Shown here: one piece after another, positions 2,877 to 46,323 of the stretch
Position numbering within the stretch: the stretch's first letter is position 1
Layout of the letters: every line of letters begins with the position of its first letter
DNA from: a bacterium UBP4_UBA6127
Lineage (GTDB): Bacteria > UBP4 > UBA4092
Length of the DNA: 56,332 nucleotides
Assembly: GCA_002428325.1 (NCBI GenBank)
Contig: DIVR01000077.1
Location: forward strand, 1-56,332
Reading direction: 5' to 3'
Made by a program: the position numbers and the translations under genes
Notes under the pieces: generated by a model
Databases searched by the model: none
Told to the model about the DNA's origin: nothing
What the model saw: the letters and a program-made list of their open reading frames with translations, nothing else

Positions 2877-3022
2877 AGAAGCTGGGGGGAGCTGCCGCCT
2901 TTACCCTTTGCTGTCATTATCCATCTTTAATACGCGGGGAAAATTGTCTCTATATTTATCTTATCGGCTCATGGGAAGATATTGGAACACTGGGCGTATT
3001 AACAATAGGTAAGAGGAAAAAA

Positions 3023-3628
3023 ATGGGTTTTGAAAAAACCGAGCGGACAGATGAGGATTTAATGAAGTCTTATCTGGCAGGAGATCTGGATGCTTTTGAG
3101 CATCTGGCTCTCCGCTATGAGAAACTGTTGGTCAATTATGCCTATTCATTTCTTCGCCGCCAATCCGTAAGCGAAGATATCGTACAGGATGTCTTTATGA
3201 AACTGGTGGAAAATAAAAAGAATTATGATACCAACCGGCCTTTTCGGCCCTGGATTTATCGGATTGCCCGAAACCGGATTTATGATGAACTGCGGAAAAT
3301 CCGCCGCTGGAATATATTTCATTTCCGGACAGATACCGAACCGGAAGCTCCTCAGCAAATCGGGGAAATACCGGACCCTCTCGGCTCACCCAGGGAGACT
3401 CTAAATCAGAGTGAGCTATGTGCCAGCCTTCAAAAAGGCCTTGGGAAACTGGATACCCGGTCCCGGGACTTGCTGGTCCTAAGATATTTACAGAGGCTCC
3501 CGGTCCGGGAGGTCTCAGAAATCATGGGAATCCCCGAAGGAACCGTTCATTCGGGTACCCATCGGGCTTTAAAATTACTGGAAAAGATATTAAACCAATA
3601 TGGAATCACTGGGGAGGACCTGCCATGA
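3023..3628 (+). CDS. ECF-type RNA polymerase sigma-70 factor
   Basis: The ORF 2858-3628 is over-extended. The real start is ATG at 3023, after AAGAGGA at 3011-3017. Region 2-like segment DIVQDVFMKL..RPFRPWIYRIARNRIYD. Region 4 helix-turn-helix LPVREVSEIMGIPEGTVHSGTHRALKLL. Confidence 0.8.
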   Translation: MGFEKTERTDEDLMKSYLAGDLDAFEHLALRYEKLLVNYAYSFLRRQSVSEDIVQDVFMKLVENKKNYDTNRPFRPWIYRIARNRIYDELRKIRRWNIFHFRTDTEPEAPQQIGEIPDPLGSPRETLNQSELCASLQKGLGKLDTRSRDLLVLRYLQRLPVREVSEIMGIPEGTVHSGTHRALKLLEKILNQYGITGEDLP

Positions 3629-4407
3629 CTGATAATACGGATAAACTGGCTACCCTTTTATCCCAAGTTACCTCCCGGGAAACTTCGCCTGAATTCCATA
3701 CCCGGTTAATGAAGAAAATTCATCAAGCCGAAAGCCTGGCAACCCTCGGTACTACCCTGGGAGCTGTCTATCTGGAACCCAAAAAAACCTCTGAACCTCG
3801 GATGGCCCAATCAGGCGAAGCATTATTCGCAGGAGACCGGATCCTGACCCGGAAGACGGGTAAAACCTATATCCTCTTCAAAGATGGGACTCAATTATGG
3901 TTAAATCAGGAATCGACTCTGGTCATTGGGGATACCCCTCGGCAACACCAGCTTCCCTTGGGGGAATTACTGGCTTTTGTTACCCGGGCTAAAACCCGTA
4001 AAGACCGGTTTATCCTGAAAACCCCCTCGGCTTTGGTGGAAGTATTAGGCACCGAATTTGATATTGCCATCACCACTGACCAGTCCAGTCTGCTGACAGT
4101 CCTCAGGGGGAGAGTCCAATTCCAGAATGACAAAGGGAGTTTACGGCTGAAATCCAAGTACCAATCCACGGCTAAACCTTCCCAAAAACCTTCCAGGCCC
4201 CAAAAGGTAAAGACTCTGGAGAAAATCCAATGGACTCAAGACTTAGCCCTCCAGGCTGCTAAAGAAGAAAATAATACCCTGCCGGAGACCCTGACCCAAC
4301 CCGAAAGGTTTAATAACACCTTCTCTCCGGGTAAGACCCTTCTAATCCTGGCATTCACCGGAATCTTGGGTTATCTCCTGGGGTACCTTTATGGAATGTG
4401 GCAATAA
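3625..4407 (+). CDS. FecR-domain anti-sigma factor with C-terminal TM anchor
   Basis: ATGA overlap with the sigma factor stop codon, suggesting translational coupling. FecR-like beta-sandwich segment GDRILTRKTGKTYILFKDGTQLWLNQESTLVIG...VEVLGTEFDI. The single TM helix LLILAFTGILGYLLGYLYGMW sits at the extreme C-terminus. Confidence 0.6.
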   Translation: MTDNTDKLATLLSQVTSRETSPEFHTRLMKKIHQAESLATLGTTLGAVYLEPKKTSEPRMAQSGEALFAGDRILTRKTGKTYILFKDGTQLWLNQESTLVIGDTPRQHQLPLGELLAFVTRAKTRKDRFILKTPSALVEVLGTEFDIAITTDQSSLLTVLRGRVQFQNDKGSLRLKSKYQSTAKPSQKPSRPQKVKTLEKIQWTQDLALQAAKEENNTLPETLTQPERFNNTFSPGKTLLILAFTGILGYLLGYLYGMWQ

Positions 4408-4430: not shown

Positions 4431-4496
4431 AAACGGGGTGAGACCCAGGCTGATGGTTACAGCCTGGGTCCCCCCGGCAAAATAAAATAAACCTAA
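4431..4496 (+). other. conserved hairpin-containing non-coding element, copy 1
   Basis: aaacgg ggtgaGACCCAGGCTgatggttacAGCCTGGGTCcccccggcaaaataaaataaa. It has a 10-bp perfect stem at 4442-4470. It is near-identical to the element at 25581-25660. Confidence 0.6.
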
Positions 4497-4512
4497 AAGG
4501 AGAAGGAATAAG

Positions 4513-5040
4513 ATGAGATACTCGAAATTTGTAGTTCTGGTCGGTGCTTTGGCAACCTTTGGCATGTGCTTCTACCTGGGATATCAACAGGTTCTGGCAG
4601 TCCGGAAAGACCCTGGAAAGAATCCAGCCGCTCAATCAGCCAACCTCGCATCCAAACCTTCAAAAGATATTTATGAGATTGCGCTGACATTACGGCTCAA
4701 ACCCGATAAGGAAATCCTGGTAGGAACCCTTCCTGAAAAGGGAATTTCTATCTATCTTCTCACCCATGTCCTGCCTGAATCCAATCCTAAGACTGTTGAG
4801 TTAAACTACCAGCTGAGAAGCAAGGACGGCAAAACCGTTCTCTCAGCTCCCAAGATTAAAACCTTCCTGGATTCAGAATGCCGCTTAGAAAACCGTTATC
4901 CGGACTCGCCGTCATCTAAGTCCCCCTCTTATTACCAGATAACTTCATTGGTCACCCAAGCTCCAAACAATACCTATCAGGCCAAAATCCATATTGTAAT
5001 GAGTAATGTTGCCATGGACACATCCTCTCAGCCAAAATAG
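4513..5040 (+). CDS. hypothetical N-terminally anchored or secreted protein, likely ECF-sigma target
   Basis: ORF with RBS aaaggagaagg. N-terminal hydrophobic segment FVVLVGALATFGMCFYLGY. Confidence 0.45.
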   Translation: MRYSKFVVLVGALATFGMCFYLGYQQVLAVRKDPGKNPAAQSANLASKPSKDIYEIALTLRLKPDKEILVGTLPEKGISIYLLTHVLPESNPKTVELNYQLRSKDGKTVLSAPKIKTFLDSECRLENRYPDSPSSKSPSYYQITSLVTQAPNNTYQAKIHIVMSNVAMDTSSQPK

Positions 5041-19625: not shown

Positions 19626-19659
19626 AGGAAGGGGCCTCAAGCCCCTTCCTGTTTTTTTA
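19626..19659 (+). terminator. rho-independent terminator after the GH20-like gene
   Basis: aggaaggggccucaagccccuuccuguuuuuuu. Confidence 0.7.
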
Positions 19660-19821
19660 TGTCTGTATTTTGAGCTATATCATCACTGGGGGTGAAGCTG
19701 TTTTGTAGAAATGCTTCATTCATAACGGGTGAGTCCGATGTTTTACCATTCATTCAGGAGTTAGGATTGCTGTTGCTGATGAACTAGTGTGTGCAATCAG
19801 GCAGGTAATAATACTAAAAAG

Positions 19822-24986: not shown

Positions 24987-25436
24987 TCAAATAAAATAAA
25001 CATCCGGATTTGATTCATCCATCTTTGCCGGAGTTCCGGTAACATCTGCCAGAGTGGTATTATCCAGAATATCGGAGACGGCTTCTCGGACCCTTCGCAT
25101 GATTATCTGAAAACGGCAAAAGGTTTCCTCTGTGCAGGGCTGATATTGTTTGACACTTACACAGCCGATAGGTGACAGGCTCCCCTCAAATACCCGGATG
25201 ACTTCGCCAAAGGTAATCTTATCCGGGGACCGGGAGAGGGTATATCCCCCGTTTTGCCCTGATTTGGCCGTTATTATCCCGGCATTCTTCAGCTCTCTTA
25301 ATATCTGTTCCAAGAATTTCTCGGGAATGGAATGATTCTGGGATATTTCTTTGGTTTGGACTAACCGCTGGTTATAATTCATCGATAAATCCATTAATGC
25401 CCTCAGAGCATAATCCCCTTTTGCTGATAACTTCAT
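24987..25436 (-). CDS. Rrf2-family transcriptional regulator with three-Cys motif (IscR/NsrR-like)
   Basis: MKLSAKGDYALRALMDLS winged helix. C-x9-C-x5-C (GCVSVKQYQPCTEETFC). Confidence 0.75.
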   Translation of the reverse strand: MKLSAKGDYALRALMDLSMNYNQRLVQTKEISQNHSIPEKFLEQILRELKNAGIITAKSGQNGGYTLSRSPDKITFGEVIRVFEGSLSPIGCVSVKQYQPCTEETFCRFQIIMRRVREAVSDILDNTTLADVTGTPAKMDESNPDVYFI

Positions 25437-25518
25437 TCCGTCTTTTCCCTTCTCTCTGACTCGATTTCTTTTATATTATTTCCATTCTATAGTTTCCCTA
25501 TATACTTTGTCAACATAC

Positions 25519-25544
25519 TGACCGAAAAAAAAGTTCTTCGGTCA
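25519..25544. promoter_or_regulatory. perfect 8-bp inverted repeat TGACCGAA-N10-TTCGGTCA in the Rrf2/LVIVD divergent intergenic region (candidate operator)
   Basis: Seen in the sequence. It resembles the TGACA..TGTCA palindrome family. Confidence 0.35.
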
Positions 25545-25580: not shown

Positions 25581-25660
25581 AAACGGAGAGGGACCCAGGC
25601 TGATGGCAACAGGCTGGGTCAAACCCCGGGAAAGGAAAAAATAAAATATTTAAATAAAAA
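25581..25660 (+). other. conserved hairpin-containing non-coding element, copy 2
   Basis: aaacggagagGGACCCAGGCTgatggcaacAGgCTGGGTCaaaccccgggaaagg aaaaaataaaata. It aligns with copy 1 across its whole length. Confidence 0.6.
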
Positions 25661-25753
25661 AAATATTTTGTAAGGTTTAGGCGAGAGAACCCCTCTAATA
25701 GGATAGAAACAAGGAATCAATAAATTATAAATAATCAATCAAGAGGAGAGGTT

Positions 25754-28288
25754 ATGCCGATGAAAGAGCAGACTGTTTTTAAGAAGGCCCGATATTGGCT
25801 GACCGGAATCGGAATCTCCGGTTTAGTGCTATTCATCCTGACGGGATTTGGGTATCAGTCGGGAGAGGGAGAATTAAAACAACTAGGACAAATTCCGGGA
25901 TATTGCCAGTATGTGGTCCTTGAAGGGAATTATGCCTATCAGGCGGATGGAGCTGGACTTAGTATTGTCGATATCAGCGACCCGGAGAATCCTGTCAAAA
26001 AAGGGAGCCTGAACTTATCAGAAAGGCCTGTTTCTCTGGAAATCAGCGGTAATTATGCCTATATTGCCAATGGCCGGACGGGGATGAAAGTGATAGATAT
26101 TTCCAATCCCGAAGCTCCGGTTGAGAAAGCCACCCTGGATACTCCCGGTTTCTTGAATCAGGTCAAAATCAGGGGAAGCTACGCTTATCTGGCTGATGAT
26201 GTCCAAGGATTGGAAGTAGCCAACATCTCAGACCCTCTGAATCCATCCATTCTCACCACCTGCAACACTCCGGGACAGGCTCGGAGAATTGCCTTCAGGG
26301 ATAATTATCTGGTTCTATCGGATTACAGGGGTGGAATGAGGCTTTTTGACATCACGACAGCATCTTCCCCTTTGGAAGTTTCTTCCCTGGTTACTACCAG
26401 GGCCCTCCTGAATACCGCTATCTCGGGAAGATGGGCTTATTTAGCCTGGGATAATGATGAATTATGGGTAGTGGACCTTGAGAATCCCCTCAGTCCGATA
26501 GTTACCAACACAACAATCACCCCTAATATTGTGGATGACTTACAAGTGGTAGGAAATCGGCTCTATACGGTAGGCGGAGAAGGGGAATTCCGGCAGTTTG
26601 ATATTTCTACTCCAGCCGATCCCCAGGAACTCAGCTGCCTGGAAATAGGCGGAAAAATGGCCTGCCTATCCATGAATGGGACCCTTGCCGGGATTGCTAA
26701 CCTGGACCATGGGCTGCAACTGGTCAGCTTGGAAAACCCAGCTCTGCCTGCTATCAAAGGCTTTTATAATATGGCTCGTTATATCTGGGATGTGAAATCC
26801 AATGAAGATTATGCCTTTGTTTCAGACCTCTTTCATCATTTCCGGATTTTTGACATTCGAAATCCCGATAAGCCGGTTCAAGTTTCCGCATTGAAACTTG
26901 AAAGTATACCTTTAAAAATGGCATACCAGGGACAGTATGTTTACCTCTGTAATAATGAAAGCGGGTTGAGAATTATCGATGTCTCCCGGCCGGAAAATCC
27001 ATGGATTGTTGGGAATTATATACCCTCTGCTGAAACGTGCCGAGCTTCTCAATTCTATGATGTGGCTCTCTATGGAAATAAGGCCCTGATATCCGATATG
27101 AATTATGGATTAAGGATTCTTGATGTCAGCAACCCGGCCCAGCCCCAGGAATTGGGCCATTACGCTGATAATTCCTCTAAGGGTTTCAGAGGCATTGCTG
27201 TCAAAGACTCTTATGCTCTGGTAGCAGACTATCCTAATGGATTAAAAATATTTGATATTTCCACCGCTTCTCAGCCCGTGCTGGTGGGAAAATGGGGTGC
27301 CAGGACCACGGTCCAATACTACGGGTCGAACAATATGGCTATGGATGTGGCAGTGAAAGGTAATTTTGCTTACCTGGCCAGTAGAAACTTAGGAATCTCT
27401 GTCTTGAACATTATTGACCCCACCCAACCTCAGCTGGTCAGTATTTATACCAGTTACTCACGGTTGACTGCTATATCGATAGAAATCGATGGGAATTATG
27501 CGTATGTCGGTATGGGAGATAATGGTCTCATGATATTGGATATTACCAATCCGGCCAATCTGAAAGAAGTGGCAACTGCTCCTACTTCCGGATTCCTGCG
27601 GAATGGATTCATCAATGCTTACAAGAACTTCTTAACCGCTGAAGGTCTGGGGGGAATGCGTATTTTCCAATATCAGCCAACTGATTTTGTGGCAACGCCC
27701 TCTAATCTGGTTTGTTATTCTCCTTCCTCTACCGAGAACCAGCTTTATTGGAAAGATAATGCGGATAATGAATCCCATTTTATTCTGGAGAGCCATAATG
27801 GGGATGGTAATTTTCAAGGGATAGCCCAGATACCGGCTAATTCTACCTCTTTCCGAATTACCGGGCTGACAACAGGACTTCCTTATTACTATCGTCTTTA
27901 TGCCCGCAACAGCAGTTATCTATCCGGGTATTCCAATACAGCCGCCTCCGTCCCGGGAGCTCCCAAAGCGCCGACAGAGCTTTATGCCCTCTCCCTGGAC
28001 AGCGGGTCCTATCATCTTTATTGGACGGATAATTCCAATAATGAAACGGGATTTGAACTGGAAGTCCAGCTCGACAGGGGAGAATGGAAATCATTAATGG
28101 TTCTTCCTGCCAATAAGACAGATTATACATTCTATAACCTGGCGAAATGCCATACCTATGCTTTCAGGGTAAAGTCAGTGAATACCCTGGGAACCTCAGA
28201 ACCCAGTAATGAAGTCTTGCTCTATGTAGCAGAAGGAATTACCGGAGTGCCTGAGGCCCATTGGAGATATCTGAATAATCCTGAATAG
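25754..28288 (+). CDS. LVIVD-repeat beta-propeller protein with C-terminal fibronectin type III domains
   Basis: Repeats of the form YAYxADxxxGLxIxDIS(N/D)PxxP. C-terminal FN3-like segments. N-terminal anchor. Confidence 0.7.
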   Translation: MPMKEQTVFKKARYWLTGIGISGLVLFILTGFGYQSGEGELKQLGQIPGYCQYVVLEGNYAYQADGAGLSIVDISDPENPVKKGSLNLSERPVSLEISGNYAYIANGRTGMKVIDISNPEAPVEKATLDTPGFLNQVKIRGSYAYLADDVQGLEVANISDPLNPSILTTCNTPGQARRIAFRDNYLVLSDYRGGMRLFDITTASSPLEVSSLVTTRALLNTAISGRWAYLAWDNDELWVVDLENPLSPIVTNTTITPNIVDDLQVVGNRLYTVGGEGEFRQFDISTPADPQELSCLEIGGKMACLSMNGTLAGIANLDHGLQLVSLENPALPAIKGFYNMARYIWDVKSNEDYAFVSDLFHHFRIFDIRNPDKPVQVSALKLESIPLKMAYQGQYVYLCNNESGLRIIDVSRPENPWIVGNYIPSAETCRASQFYDVALYGNKALISDMNYGLRILDVSNPAQPQELGHYADNSSKGFRGIAVKDSYALVADYPNGLKIFDISTASQPVLVGKWGARTTVQYYGSNNMAMDVAVKGNFAYLASRNLGISVLNIIDPTQPQLVSIYTSYSRLTAISIEIDGNYAYVGMGDNGLMILDITNPANLKEVATAPTSGFLRNGFINAYKNFLTAEGLGGMRIFQYQPTDFVATPSNLVCYSPSSTENQLYWKDNADNESHFILESHNGDGNFQGIAQIPANSTSFRITGLTTGLPYYYRLYARNSSYLSGYSNTAASVPGAPKAPTELYALSLDSGSYHLYWTDNSNNETGFELEVQLDRGEWKSLMVLPANKTDYTFYNLAKCHTYAFRVKSVNTLGTSEPSNEVLLYVAEGITGVPEAHWRYLNNPE

Positions 28289-28339: not shown

Positions 28340-28385
28340 GGGTGTATCGAGCAAGTCCGACACCCGGCTTTTCCTGTTTTTCCCT
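28340..28385 (+). terminator. rho-independent terminator after the LVIVD gene
   Basis: agccgggugu...acacccggcu followed by uuuccuguuuuu. Confidence 0.55.
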
Positions 28386-33992: not shown

Positions 33993-36002
33993 ATGCCATA
34001 TCCGACCGGGAAAAATATTTTCATTATATTATTTATCACTCTATTGACCCTTATATCCAGCCAGACCTTGGCTCTGGGAGTAGATACTGCATCTTTAAAG
34101 GAACCTAAGGTCTATTCAGCCTTCCAAGCACCTCTATTGGTAAATGACTTCAGCCTGGAGACAGGGTATCGTCAGGTCAGGGTAAGCTGGACAAATTCCA
34201 CTGTTCCCGAATATGTTGCCACCCGGATTATGAGAAAAGAGGGCAGTGCATCAAGCTCTACCACGGATGGAGTTCTGTTATATGAAGGGAATGGGACCTA
34301 TTGTGTGGACAGTAATTTGGCCAATGGGATAACTTATTATTATACGGCCTACCTCCGGGATACGAGCCAATACTATGCAGAGGGAACCAGCCTGAGGGTT
34401 ACCCTTTCCCCGGCGCCAGTCAACCAGTTTACCGCCATGCCTAAAGGAACCTCCGTGATATTAAGCTGGAACAATCCCCACCAGGAGGATTATCTGGCAA
34501 CATTGGTTGTGCGAAGGACGGATCGATATCCTGCCAGCCCGACTGATGGGGAAGTTGTCTATTGGTATAACGGGAATTCCTGTGAAGATAAAAATAAGGT
34601 CATGGGCCAGACTTATTACTATGCCGCTTATGCCCATGACACCCAATACATATTTGCTCCTTCAGCAAAAGACCAGATAACTTTTGGGGATACCATTCCC
34701 CCTGATTCAGTGACCGTTCTTTCTGTTTTACCAGGCGATCAAAAAGTAAATTTGGCGTGGACTCCCCCGGAGGATATCGATTATGTATCCACCTTGATTT
34801 GCCGAAGGGATGACCGATATTCTTTTTATCCGGGAGATGGGGATGTCGCATACTGGTATAACGGGACGCAATATACAGACCAGCCGTTAGTTAATGGGAA
34901 AACTTATTACTATACTTTCTATGCCCAGGACAAAAATATGAATTTTTCGTCAGGATGGCAGGAATCTGTTTATCTGGACAGCTGGCAGAATCGAATGAGT
35001 GATTTTGATGTGGCTGCCGATACATCCAACTGGGCCTATGAACCGGTTGAAGGAATTACCGGGATGCCGGGTGTGTCCTGGAACTCTCTTTATGCTGAGC
35101 ATACCGGCTTAATGAAAATAAGCTTCTCAGGAGAAACAGAAGGAATCAAAATGACCGGGTTGGGAAGAGTAAACTCCAATTATTCAACTGGTTGGGTCAA
35201 TCTGAAGATAACCTTTAGGGAAGATTCGACTAATGATAACATGGAAATCCTGCCGGTGGGGTTGTTTTTCAGCAATCCAACCAGTTGGGAACTTAGAGGG
35301 GTCGGGGCCTCCTGGACAGGAGAAAATCAGAGTTTAAAAGGGAGCTGGCATACATGGGAAACCTGGATGGAATCAAGAAACTATTTAACTCAGCCTCAAC
35401 TGATTCTGAAAAACAACGGACATCCGGGAACCCTCTATATTGATTCTGTGGAATTGAACCATGTCCCGGCTCCGGCATTCTCCATAGCCACTTCTTATTC
35501 CTATGAATATGGGGATTTCTCTCCAGCAGAGGATACGGCCCAATGGGGGTTTGAAACCCTGGATGAAACCACTGGCGGTATGCCGGAGATATCCATTATC
35601 AATACCAATGACCATCGATCTTATGATGCGCTTCTTTTAACCTTTACCGGTCCCGATCAGGGGTTGAAGATGACCAGCAAGACCCTTTTTGATACCCAGC
35701 CATCCGCTCCTCTATATTTATACTACATGGCAAAAACAACAGTCGAGGATACCACCTATTTCGGACTAGATATCGGTGGATTTCTTTATTCTGAGGACAG
35801 TAGTGACCCGGAGCTTTATGAAATCGGGGGAAGATATGATATTGGATTTTCCGGTACCGGCTGGGACGAACGAATGATCTATCTGAATCCATTGGCAGGG
35901 CACACCCAGGGCCGGATTCAAATGATCATCCGAAATCATGATTATTACCCTTTCCAGGTATTACTGGATAATTTCAGTTTCCATTCTTTAGCAGAGAATT
36001 AA
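33993..36002 (+). CDS. secreted protein with three FN3-like modules and a C-terminal beta-rich region
   Basis: Signal peptide. Module ends GITYYYTAYLRD, GQTYYYAAYAHD and GKTYYYTFYAQD. Confidence 0.55.
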   Translation: MPYPTGKNIFIILFITLLTLISSQTLALGVDTASLKEPKVYSAFQAPLLVNDFSLETGYRQVRVSWTNSTVPEYVATRIMRKEGSASSSTTDGVLLYEGNGTYCVDSNLANGITYYYTAYLRDTSQYYAEGTSLRVTLSPAPVNQFTAMPKGTSVILSWNNPHQEDYLATLVVRRTDRYPASPTDGEVVYWYNGNSCEDKNKVMGQTYYYAAYAHDTQYIFAPSAKDQITFGDTIPPDSVTVLSVLPGDQKVNLAWTPPEDIDYVSTLICRRDDRYSFYPGDGDVAYWYNGTQYTDQPLVNGKTYYYTFYAQDKNMNFSSGWQESVYLDSWQNRMSDFDVAADTSNWAYEPVEGITGMPGVSWNSLYAEHTGLMKISFSGETEGIKMTGLGRVNSNYSTGWVNLKITFREDSTNDNMEILPVGLFFSNPTSWELRGVGASWTGENQSLKGSWHTWETWMESRNYLTQPQLILKNNGHPGTLYIDSVELNHVPAPAFSIATSYSYEYGDFSPAEDTAQWGFETLDETTGGMPEISIINTNDHRSYDALLLTFTGPDQGLKMTSKTLFDTQPSAPLYLYYMAKTTVEDTTYFGLDIGGFLYSEDSSDPELYEIGGRYDIGFSGTGWDERMIYLNPLAGHTQGRIQMIIRNHDYYPFQVLLDNFSFHSLAEN

Positions 36003-46120: not shown

Positions 46121-46170
46121 TAATTTAAGAAAAGATAATCAACCCTCCTGTAAGAAGCACAAACCTTGCA
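46121..46170 (+). terminator. rho-independent terminator
   Basis: cccuccuguaag...cuugcaggaggg followed by uuuuuuuu. Confidence 0.6.
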
Positions 46171-46323
46171 GGAGGGTTTTTTTTACTGGAAACAGGCAGG
46201 TTCCTTGTTTCTGAATAATGAGCATTAATCAAGGTTTGCTTAATTTTTGAAAAAGCATTATATTATGAAAATAGCCCCTCCTAAAAAATGGGGTTAAACA
46301 ACAAAATGGAGGGAGGGTTTTTG

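Follow-up and report, generated by a model that had tools for sequence, protein, structure and literature searches.

Results

Genetic context of the two elements

The window (the whole stretch of 56,332 nt analysed here, from a bacterium of the UBP4 lineage) carries two copies of a short inverted repeat, each preceding a gene for a secreted or membrane-anchored protein (Table 1). At the first locus the genes for an ECF sigma factor and its FecR-type anti-sigma factor overlap by 4 nt and are followed by copy 1 and by a gene for a 175-aa protein, in which an N-terminal hydrophobic helix precedes a GYQ motif and no known domain was found. Two homologs of this protein were recovered: a 97% identical twin by a word-based search, and a 43% identical ortholog, located by synteny, in a distant relative (hereafter R). 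Upstream of the sigma gene an ECF-type motif reads GGAAG-N16-CGTA at 2974-2998; it is found in the window, in R and in L067, and is the likely source of a transcript containing copy 1. Between the FecR stop codon and the next start codon no promoter-like site was seen in either genome, and in distant homologs of this locus a gap of 54-104 nt separates FecR from the cargo genes immediately after it. With no local promoter, an ECF motif upstream and the cargo gene directly after FecR, copy 1 would therefore almost certainly lie inside the operon mRNA, and the sigma/FecR transcription unit (3023..4407) most likely runs through it.

Table 1. Genes and sequence features at the two loci (. = no single strand).
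Feature	Position	Strand	Basis or remark
ECF-type promoter-like motif GGGAAG-N16-CGTATTAA	2972..3003	+	Upstream of sigma gene, conserved in R
ECF sigma factor gene	3023-3628	+	Gene calls and Pfam
FecR-type anti-sigma factor gene	3625-4407	+	Gene calls and Pfam
Copy 1, two-tier inverted repeat	4434..4476	+	Perfect inner helix; ortholog arms identical
A-rich spacer and ribosome-binding site GGAG (4499-4502)	4477..4512	+	36 nt here, 32 nt in R
175-aa protein gene, downstream of copy 1	4513..5040	+	43% identical to same-position gene in R
Rrf2-family regulator gene, divergent from copy-2 region	24987..25436	-	
Conserved island, back-to-back sigma-70-like sites	25479..25513	.	Both sites also in L060
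Copy 2, two-tier inverted repeat as copy 1	25584..25628	+	Fold; ortholog arms identical
Conserved two-block island, ATTTTGTAAnGTTTnGGC, ~10 variable nt, CTCTAnnnnGATAGAnACA	25665..25711	+	44 nt downstream of copy 2
LVIVD-repeat / fibronectin-III protein gene, 844 aa, downstream of copy 2	25754..28288	+	

Copy 2 lies between the divergent genes for an Rrf2-family regulator and an LVIVD-repeat protein, an order kept in both genomes. The Rrf2 protein is 85% identical between them, its winged helix being nearly invariant, and its gene is the first of a Cys/Met-metabolism operon with a conserved promoter island of its own that contains no palindrome. That island holds TTGACA-18-TAGAAT on the minus strand, for the Rrf2 gene, and TTTCCA-16-TATACT on the plus strand, directed toward copy 2 and the LVIVD gene and situated ~85 nt upstream of copy 2 in both genomes. 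A second island, in two blocks, follows copy 2 at a spacing kept between the genomes and is a candidate second promoter or leader element. The LVIVD protein begins with an N-terminus of the same type as the 175-aa protein (..LTGFGYQS); outside the adjacent secretion-machinery cluster, these are the only two complete genes of the 56-kb window that encode a hydrophobic helix followed by a G-Y/F-Q motif.

Architecture of the element

The initial annotation had reported two copies of a 65-nt hairpin with a 10-bp stem and a 9-nt loop. Both copies are indeed where it placed them: over the whole window, the arm pattern GACCCAGGCTG-N9-AGCCTGGGTC (up to three mismatches) matches 4442-4470 and 25592-25620 only, and it has no match in 100 dinucleotide-preserving shuffles, so that none is expected by chance. 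Its distances to the neighbouring genes are also correct (FecR ends with its stop codon at 4407, and the two downstream genes start at 4513 and 25754). The stem itself needed revision: it has 11 bp and closes a 7-nt loop (GACCCAGGCTG / CAGCCTGGGTC), and AGCCTGGGTC, which had been attributed to both copies, is replaced in copy 2 by CAGGCTGGGTC, creating a G:G mismatch (G25599:G25613) and a weaker fold. The element is ~45 nt long with a 29-nt core. In copy 1, an outer helix (C4434-G4438 / C4472-G4476) encloses an inner helix in which all 11 bp are paired (4442-4452 / 4460-4470) and the loop ATGGTTA (4453-4459); in copy 2 the outer arms are CGGAG (25584-25588) and CCCCG (25624-25628), the inner arms occupy 25592-25602 and 25610-25620, and the loop is ATGGCAA.

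An end-to-end alignment of the two copies had also been proposed. It holds for the first 40 nt, of which 34 are identical, but the tails align only with gaps. Likewise, AAACGG, CCCCGG and AAAATAAAATA do occur in both window copies, but they are not kept in the orthologous elements of R, and the distance from the stem to AAAATAAAATA is 8 nt in one window copy versus 17 nt in the other. Since these flanking motifs are not conserved, the functional unit is delimited to the 29-nt core and the short outer helix (4434-4476, 25584-25628).

The arms are invariant in a distant relative

R is well diverged from the window: amino-acid identity is 64% for FecR, 62% for the LVIVD protein and lowest for the 175-aa cargo protein, 4-fold degenerate sites are saturated (35-49% identical), and the intergenic DNA around the elements is not alignable. 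Both elements nevertheless have orthologs, at L062:10832-10876 (copy 1) and L060:9832-9876 (copy 2), in which 22/22 arm bases are identical at each locus, down to the C-to-G change specific to copy 2 and hence the same mismatch, while loops and flanks diverge. The distance from element to start codon is kept (36 vs 32 nt at the copy 1 locus, 125 vs ~125 nt at the copy 2 locus); the distance of copy 1 from the upstream stop codon varies (26 nt vs 48 nt in R). This comparison demonstrates, at the level of sequence, that selection has acted on the element at both loci across saturated divergence. Because the arms are identical at both loci in so distant a relative, it is almost certain that the element is a genuine signal in gene control; its general kind, a leader hairpin or an operator, is an ordinary one.

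Two observations had been named beforehand as capable of overturning the element. One, a position inside a coding frame in related genomes, is contradicted, the element being present and non-coding at both orthologous loci in both genomes. The other, restriction to two loci without covariation, is largely what we see within the searched DNA, and yet the orthologous conservation shows that the element is functional. Of the identities suggested for it, a protein-binding RNA or DNA hairpin is still the best description, with the binder a putative one.

The loops evolve differently: both have changed in parallel in each lineage (AT..A in the window, AA..T in R), and they are more alike within one genome than between orthologs. 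A leader peptide starting in the loop (ATG GTT ACA...) would have a start codon in the window only and was rejected because this ATG reads AAG in R. Sequestration of a ribosome-binding site by CUCC in the outer stem was likewise discarded, the complementarity not being kept.

Base-pairing and the DNA operator alternative

All four instances (4/4) fold into the same two-tier hairpin, with energies of -23 to -37 kcal/mol and z from -3.4 to -7.9; copy 1 reaches -34.3 kcal/mol (z about -5.7 to -5.9) and copy 2 -22.8 kcal/mol (z = -3.6). With AAGGUUU as the sequence of both loops in R, the inner helix there gains two A-U pairs, giving a 13-3-13 arrangement. Within the inner 11-bp stem the four instances show no change at all, thus neither covariation nor a G.U change. 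Together with the lack of an Rfam match, this gives no support to a riboswitch-like RNA whose structure covaries, one form that the cis-regulatory RNA of the initial annotation could have taken. The outer stem does vary, and because the MAFFT alignment misplaced the gap in copy 1 its pairs were tabulated by hand. Besides a single swap from G-C to A-U, they comprise a single G.U and a single A.C; the number of sequences is too small for statistics. The swap is a double change, from CGGGG/CCCCG in copy 1 to CGGAG/CUCCG in its ortholog, whereas the ortholog of copy 2 pairs through the G.U; in copy 1, a 2-nt deletion leaves an internal loop of 3/1 rather than 3/3 nt with the outer pairing retained. 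These changes mark the outer tier as helix-like in its behaviour, unlike a symmetric protein site. The single compensatory pair is anecdotal, since two lineages, that is one evolutionary split, are being compared.

The main alternative is that the inverted repeat (11-7-11, or 13-3-13 in R) serves in duplex DNA as the binding site of a dimeric transcription factor, which would repress the two downstream genes by roadblock or activate them; the hairpin in the RNA would then arise as a by-product, like that of CIRCE, or add a second layer of control. The binder could possibly be the Rrf2-family regulator, which stands divergent to the LVIVD gene in both genomes and is strongly conserved, above all in its winged helix. 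Arms invariant in eight half-sites save for one ortholog-shared change, around a variable spacer, are what an operator would show, as are the lack of covariation and the tolerance of a conserved mismatch, and the parallel loop change of each lineage is explicable by co-evolution with one trans-acting factor. Indeed, the frozen inner helix and the conserved, unrepaired G:G are no less compatible with a symmetric dimer recognising duplex DNA than with a reading as RNA. Full-length Rrf2 sites are characterised by inverted repeats with 11-bp arms, which the element matches; in the class 1 '11-3-11' operators of RsrR such arms lie between the rrf2 gene and its divergent gene, the main RsrR target, and a second site is found elsewhere in the genome (PMC5015018).

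Several features nonetheless sit poorly with an operator. In neither genome is there a promoter close enough to be controlled from copy 1, and copy 2 is ~90 nt from each candidate promoter, that of the rrf2 gene included; the outer tier of copy 1 is asymmetric about the dyad (3 vs 1 nt) and yet complementary. Known Rrf2 sites have spacers of 1-3 bp, whereas that of the element has 7 bp in this genome, and its G+C-rich half-site is unlike the known IscR, NsrR and CymR motifs. Moreover, this Rrf2 gene heads a Cys/Met-metabolism operon and its own conserved promoter island is devoid of a palindrome. On balance we regard an operator as a possibility of some weight, if a rather unlikely one. A point on the operator side is that the island at 25665-25711 could be the real promoter, which would leave copy 2 untranscribed.

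Searches for further copies

No third copy was found in the window by nhmmer, a weak match at 34377-34402 (E = 0.2-0.55) being rejected as it lies within an ORF, and none in about 110 kb of lineage DNA, which includes ~66 kb of this genome and ~43 kb of the relative. Arm scans listed at least 50 matches in GTDB genomes, four in JGI metagenomes and none in IMG/VR; the GTDB and JGI matches listed have unrelated flanks and loops and resemble ordinary terminators or coding palindromes. The best look-alike among them, L012 from an Anaerolineae MAG, which also has GAGAAACGG, falls within a 700-aa ORF and was dismissed. As the scanned collections did not return even the source contigs, they do not contain the lineage and absence from them says little. 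Blastn of the 65-mer against plasmids and phages gave no match, Rfam at gathering score gave 0 matches over the whole window and in E-value mode only noise at both loci (E ~1 or more, miRNA models), and a literature search for the arm sequence returned eukaryotic PCR primers only.

These searches bear on whether the element is a dispersed palindrome of the REP/BIME or MITE type, selfish or structural, with no gene-specific role apart from what any hairpin does to an mRNA. Counting flanks, the copies have about 55-65 nt in common, suggestive of an origin by duplication, the similarity of the loops within each genome resembles concerted evolution, and the assemblies L052, L053 and L067 break exactly within the hairpin. 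We nevertheless consider this very unlikely: the ~66 kb and ~43 kb of lineage DNA contain no extra copy, the matches listed from the GTDB, JGI-metagenome, IMG/VR, plasmid and phage collections are chance hairpins with no homologous copy among them, and across a deep split both copies keep their orthologous position and an invariant sequence. Neither the 5' GTAG head of RAYT-associated repeats beside any copy nor a transposase-like gene among the scanned window ORFs was seen, and the flanks show no TIR or TSD at an element that occupies both orthologous sites in both genomes. REPs between divergent genes are atypical, and copy 2 has just such a position.

The 11-bp arms, the 7-bp asymmetric spacer and the direct orientation of two sites 21 kb apart also recall the core site of a tyrosine recombinase, of the lox or dif kind (dif is 11-6-11 and loxP 13-8-13). 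The 11-7-11 layout fits that class and the two spacers of R are identical; but those of the window differ (ATGGTTA vs ATGGCAA), no recombinase gene occurs among the scanned window ORFs, the genes flanking each site on either side keep their order in the two genomes, and the two sites of R are not on one 131-kb contig. There is next to no chance that recombination is its role.

Termination and promoter activity

A very stable G+C-rich hairpin 26 nt past the FecR stop codon might be expected to act as an intrinsic terminator or attenuator that ends the sigma/FecR transcript at copy 1, with a similar one at copy 2, and copy 1, read on the minus strand, has UUUAUU after its extended hairpin. We give this a slender chance. 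On the plus strand the tails are rich in A: a U-tract is missing from 3/4 instances and, in the fourth, from the 13 nt next to the stem, and none of the four is called as a terminator by a consensus scan, whereas canonical U-tract terminators are present elsewhere in the window (19627-19665, 28340-28385, 46141-46190). This bears out the earlier view that a simple terminator is unlikely. In addition, copy 2, between divergent genes, has no upstream gene on its own strand to terminate; the tails on the minus strand show no conservation (AUUAAAUU, UUUCUCCU, UAUUAAAA); at copy 1 it is the distance to the next start codon that is kept, and not the distance to the stop codon; and a terminator has no need of 22 invariant bases.

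On the model of FecI and fecA, the element common to both loci might instead carry the -35 and -10 boxes from which the adjacent ECF sigma factor would transcribe both target genes; it stands directly downstream of the sigma/anti-sigma pair and upstream of a putative target gene, and is the sole sequence common to both upstream regions. ECF promoters have GGAAC-like -35 and CGT-like -10 boxes spaced by 16-17 nt, which the autoregulated sigma promoter would share. However, the conserved motif of the sigma gene has nothing similar at either copy: GGAAG-N16-CGTA is absent from both, and its four matches in the window are at chance level, with none near the element. AAAC(GG) is not kept (R has AATC and AATA), and the perfect self-complementarity over 11 bp would go unexplained. 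The ECF-sigma promoter context proposed initially thus appears scarcely credible. Sigma-54 and Bacteroidetes-type promoters in the loop or tail gave no consistent match by inspection and were set aside.

Discussion

We tentatively favour, at somewhat less than even confidence, the reading of the element as a transcribed stem-loop, located in a leader or between cistrons and read sequence-specifically. Copy 1 would lie in the intercistronic gap of an mRNA for the ECF sigma factor, FecR and the 175-aa protein, and copy 2 in the long leader of the LVIVD mRNA. In the predicted RNA fold, a small internal loop separates an outer helix (3-5 bp) from a G+C-rich inner helix of 11 bp closed by a loop of 7 nt (or 3 nt), with AU-rich single-stranded RNA on both sides. 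The element would act after transcription has started, as a shared tag that decides the fate of the downstream message, for example as a barrier affecting processing or stability, or as a factor-dependent point of pausing or read-through. The invariant sequence of the inner helix could be read by a sequence-specific trans-acting factor, and the outcome may be that expression of two genes of one cargo family is both uncoupled and co-ordinated. We infer the transcription of the element, its function at the RNA level, the binding of a factor and the direction of the effect alike.

Among known systems, CIRCE and its repressor HrcA are close: highly conserved arms flank a variable spacer whose size is similar (9-N9-9), about two operons per genome carry the site, and it lies in a leader that is transcribed, where a dimeric repressor binds it (PMC7760821). 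Only the principle of action is comparable. The element differs from it in sequence (GACCCAGGCTG-N7-CAGCCTGGGTC, as against TTAGCACTC-N9-GAGTGCTAA), in the genes downstream, which are not chaperones such as those of groE/dnaK behind CIRCE, in that no HrcA gene was seen, in its second, apparently covarying outer helix and in its confinement to one narrow uncultured lineage. CIRCE also works as an mRNA-level element. Stabiliser hairpins, such as the REP in malE-malF and the ompA 5' stem-loop, can set differential stability of mRNA segments; like them, the element is very stable, lacks a U-tract, sits within an operon or leader and has AU-rich flanks. But such hairpins are not known to be sequence-invariant between distant species while the stem here is frozen, and REPs number in the hundreds where we see two copies. 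Processive antitermination, as with lambda boxB/nut and the leader hairpins associated with LoaP, relies on a short, sequence-specific RNA hairpin and a dedicated protein, and similarly places a hairpin in the leader of few operons; the stem of the element is much longer, however, and no NusG paralog or N-like gene was identified, nor any downstream terminator that would have to be bypassed.

A lineage-restricted leader hairpin or operator is by itself an ordinary feature that would not surprise a specialist. If our reading is correct, the element is the mark of a small regulon, in an uncultured bacterium from anaerobic consortia that degrade hydrocarbons and chlorinated solvents, and this regulon would join an ECF sigma/FecR pair, a secretin cluster similar to type II secretion systems or type IV pili and proteins that share an unusual N-terminal signal. 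The frozen inner stem and the apparently covarying outer helix also make it a clean test case for telling DNA-level from RNA-level reading of an inverted repeat in a transcribed leader. Going further, the hairpin might be the recognition tag of a dedicated sequence-specific factor that ties the cargo family to the ECF-sigma/FecR module and to the adjacent secretin/pseudopilin machine, a more specific proposal that we consider unlikely. The cargo would be marked by its N-terminal hydrophobic helix, then GF(Y)xGY(Q/R/K), a family that is undescribed, and the frozen stem would be read directly as double-stranded RNA, or as extruded or duplex DNA. The element would then belong to a novel nucleic-acid/protein recognition system, working at the scale of a regulon, in an uncultured diderm lineage.

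At the distant FecR loci L064, L065 and L068 (41-44% identity) no homologous element was found. L065 has two mini-hairpins, CTGGCT-GTC-AGCCGG and CAGGCT-AAT-AGCCTG (z = -2.8), which share the CAGGCT/AGCCTG core, an ambiguous resemblance.

A hairpin-forming inverted repeat at two loci

The core of the element, an inverted repeat, consists of 11-bp arms around a 7-nt loop and is perfect in copy 1 and interrupted in copy 2 by a single G:G mismatch (G25599 opposite G25613). The initial annotation had rightly placed a hairpin at both sites, but with a 10-bp stem and a 9-nt loop. Allowing up to three mismatches, the arm pattern matches only these two copies in the window (0 matches in 100 shuffles), and nhmmer finds no third window copy with a two-copy or a four-copy profile; a REP/MITE-like repeat is unlikely. 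A weak match at 34377 was rejected as a third copy, lying within an ORF. Both copies are predicted to fold stably as RNA (copy 1, -34.3 kcal/mol, z = -5.9; copy 2, -22.8 kcal/mol, z = -3.6). Folding of the palindrome is just as favourable on the opposite strand, the flanks are A/T-rich on both sides and the only orientation cue within the element is the central GG of the loop. Three independent assemblies are broken inside the copy-1 hairpin (contigs L052 and L053 start there, L067:1705-1738 ends there), which fits coverage or assembly trouble at a very stable palindrome and is no evidence of a repeat.

The contig belongs to an uncultured diderm bacterium from anaerobic toluene- and chlorinated-methane-degrading enrichment cultures, and a secretin/PilM/pseudopilin cluster is located between the two copies.

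Positions and sequences of the features discussed (W, window genome; R, relative's genome; 1 and 2, copy-1 and copy-2 loci)
Feature	Position	Strand	Detail
Copy 1	4431-4489		aaaCGGGGtgaGACCCAGGCTGatggttaCAGCCTGGGTCcCCCCGgcaaaataaaata
Copy 2	25581-25649		aaaCGGAGaggGACCCAGGCTGatggcaaCAGGCTGGGTCaaaCCCCGggaaaggaaaaaataaaata
ECF sigma gene	3023-3628		5' of copy 1
FecR-type anti-sigma gene	3625-4407		5' of copy 1
175-aa gene	4513-5040		3' of copy 1; no known domain
Rrf2 regulator gene	24987-25436	minus	one side of copy 2
844-aa LVIVD/fn3 gene	25754-28288		other side of copy 2
Shared N-terminal signal, loci	4513-4600, 25754-25870; L062:10909-11409; L060:10001-12529; L064:8292-15190; L065:3032-9869		
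ECF-type promoter-like motif	2972-3003; L062:9350-9385; L067:222-255		GGGAAG-N16-CGTATTAA; upstream of sigma gene; block conserved across W, R and L067
Overlapping back-to-back sigma-70-like promoters	25479-25513; L060:9738-9772	both	minus TTGACA-18-TAGAAT; plus TTTCCA-16-TATACT
Two-block island	25665-25711; L060:9913-9958		ATTTTGTAAnGTTTnGGC, ~10 variable nt, CTCTAnnnnGATAGAnACA; between copy 2 and LVIVD start codon
Outer helix W1			CGGGG / CCCCG
Outer helix R1			CGGAG / CUCCG; G-C to A-U double change vs W1
Outer helix W2			CGGAG / CCCCG; one A.C
Outer helix R2			GGAGA / UCUUC; one G.U

Conservation in a second genome

Among the matches listed, arm scans of large collections gave unrelated chance hairpins and not even the source contigs; the GTDB genome scan has at least 50 matching loci (L001-L050 listed), so that true GTDB hits, and with them the lineage, may lie beyond those listed. 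The orthologous elements were reached through protein homologs. For the LVIVD protein there is a single true ortholog (P0003, 62% identity). Its JGI contigs preserve the divergent Rrf2/LVIVD order, and the intergenic region there carries GACCCAGGCTG-AAGGTTT-CAGGCTGGGTC (L060:9840-9868). From the same sample set comes a FecR ortholog (P0124, 64% identity) with a 166-aa gene behind it that shares 43% identity with the 175-aa gene, and the gap holds GACCCAGGCTG-AAGGTTT-CAGCCTGGGTC (L062:10840-10868; also in L063 and L067). Since the orthologs at both loci carry the element, both are orthologously conserved in the relative R.

Neutral sites between W and R are essentially saturated: only 35-49% of 4-fold degenerate codon sites are identical, and no alignment is possible for the intergenic DNA flanking the element, while the arm positions are identical in 22 of 22 cases at both loci. 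The R orthologs show the C-vs-G difference between copies 1 and 2 as well, so that this difference predates the W/R split and has been retained since. Judged from these comparisons, the element is under strong purifying selection at the sequence level and is clearly functional. In a 97%-identical strain (L055) it is identical.

Around the core, the conserved feature is a short outer helix; the AAACGG, CCCCGG and AAAATAAAATA motifs that the initial annotation had noted in both copies are not kept in R. The helix is present in all four minimum-energy folds, also in W1, where a 2-nt deletion gives a 3/1 internal loop instead of 3/3; with pairing thus kept, the outer tier resembles a base-paired helix and not symmetric half-sites. 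A recombinase site is unlikely. The loop is lineage-specific, not locus-specific (ATGGTTA and ATGGCAA in W, AAGGTTT in both R copies), and the R loop contributes two extra A-U pairs.

Probable transcription of the element

A promoter context for the ECF sigma factor, proposed at first, finds no backing: the sigma gene's own conserved upstream motif, which suggests that the sigma/FecR operon is autoregulated, is absent at both copies, and an ECF promoter is unlikely despite the neighbouring sigma gene. Neither in W nor in R was a sigma-70-like site found in the gap from the FecR stop to the start codon that follows, and in distant homologous loci cargo genes follow FecR directly, so that copy 1 is most likely transcribed within the sigma/FecR/cargo mRNA.

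At copy 2, the W/R intergenic alignment shows three conserved islands: a promoter island, the element and the two-block island. The promoter island, a block of about 40 nt, is almost identical between W and R, spacer included; in both genomes its minus-strand site serves the Rrf2 side and its plus-strand site is aimed at copy 2, about 85 nt off. The two-block island lies 44-45 nt downstream of copy 2 at a fixed spacing to the element and has a promoter-like architecture without sigma-70 consensus; in RNAalifold its CUCU block pairs with AGAGG directly 5' of the hairpin. A small extra hairpin in the stretch from the Rrf2 promoter to copy 2 (GACCGAA-N10-TTCGGTC, 25520-25543) is missing in R.

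The stem-loop could recall a plain terminator, which is unlikely: three of the four instances have no U-tract and the fourth has none within 13 nt of the stem, whereas ordinary terminators of the W genome have one. The distance from element to start codon is kept per locus (36 vs 32 nt; 125 vs ~125 nt); that from the upstream stop codon varies (26 vs 48 nt).

The frozen 22-nt stem with its tolerated mismatch argues for sequence-specific reading, and the covarying, indel-tolerant outer helix, the conserved start-codon spacing and the lack of a promoter at copy 1 speak for an element that is folded and transcribed. We tentatively regard it as a transcribed stem-loop, in a leader or between cistrons, with sequence-specific reading, an explanation to which we give a little under an even chance; the stem-loop would then set processing, stability or read-through of both cargo mRNAs. 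The main rival, in our view rather doubtful, is a CIRCE-like DNA operator, CIRCE being a conserved inverted repeat of 9 bp to which the HrcA dimer binds (PMC7760821). The lack of covariation is not decisive against RNA, because over one evolutionary split the absence of compensatory changes among 22 strongly selected pairs is not very unlikely. The best candidate reader of an operator is the adjacent Rrf2 protein. Four points favour it: an identity of 85% between W and R, a nearly invariant winged helix, three Cys in C-X9-C-X5-C spacing (possibly an Fe-S site), and its nearest relatives of solved structure, namely an uncharacterised BadM/Rrf2-family regulator (4cic) and CymR (2y75), IscR and NsrR being more distant. 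Full-length Rrf2 sites are described as characteristically having 11-bp inverted arms, and RsrR acts mainly on the divergent gene (PMC5015018). The gene of the adjacent Rrf2 protein heads a Cys/Met-metabolism operon (also DUF3034, O-acetylhomoserine sulfhydrylase, a Cys_Met enzyme and a PALP enzyme), a sulfur amino-acid arrangement found in both W and R; in some gene calls the start is 14 codons further in and the protein has 135 aa.

Neither Rfam nor the literature nor annotated records gave a match to the element, which is a new, lineage-restricted case of a familiar type, the conserved hairpin-forming inverted repeat in gene leaders. Its interest comes mostly from the link to the ECF/FecR module and an unusual N-terminal signal family.

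Cargo genes and a second palindrome family

The 175-aa and LVIVD proteins share an N-terminal plan with their R orthologs, in which a short basic head leads into a hydrophobic helix some 18 residues long and this into G-(Y/F)-Q (for example ..FGMCFYLGYQQ and ..LTGFGYQSG). At two distant FecR loci (L064, L065) the sigma/FecR pair is followed by 9-10 tandem genes, adjoining pseudopilin (N_methyl) genes; nearly all start MKRxIIIVLVLVVIGVGFYFGY(Q/R/K/H) and encode otherwise unrelated proteins. The signal GF(Y)xGY(Q/R/K/H) after the helix occurs on otherwise unrelated proteins with Ank, Big_5, CarboxypepD_reg, Lcl_C and LVIVD domains; no NCBIfam model for the motif was found, and the shared N-terminus may represent a dedicated sorting signal or a cargo family. 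In a loose-pattern scan of the window, the only other proteins with such an N-terminus are machinery components of the secretin cluster. The element precedes exactly the window's two cargo-type genes, an association noticed post hoc. The FecR-to-cargo gap of L065 (FecR 41% identity; 2955-3000, z = -2.8) has two mini-hairpins, CTGGCT-GTC-AGCCGG and CAGGCT-AAT-AGCCTG, which have the CAGGCT/AGCCTG core in common with the element and could be a remote relative or chance.

A second palindrome family occurs at 374-413 and 2120-2167, as perfect inverted repeats of 17 bp and 22 bp with the common core CAGGATAATGA / TCATTATCCTG. The 5' arm holds the RBS (AGGA) and ATG of two paralogous small membrane-protein genes and the 3' arm their codons 5-8 (I-I-I-L); the outer parts differ yet are complementary (TCAG/CTGA vs GTTAA/TTAAC), and the whole looks like a start-codon-sequestering hairpin.
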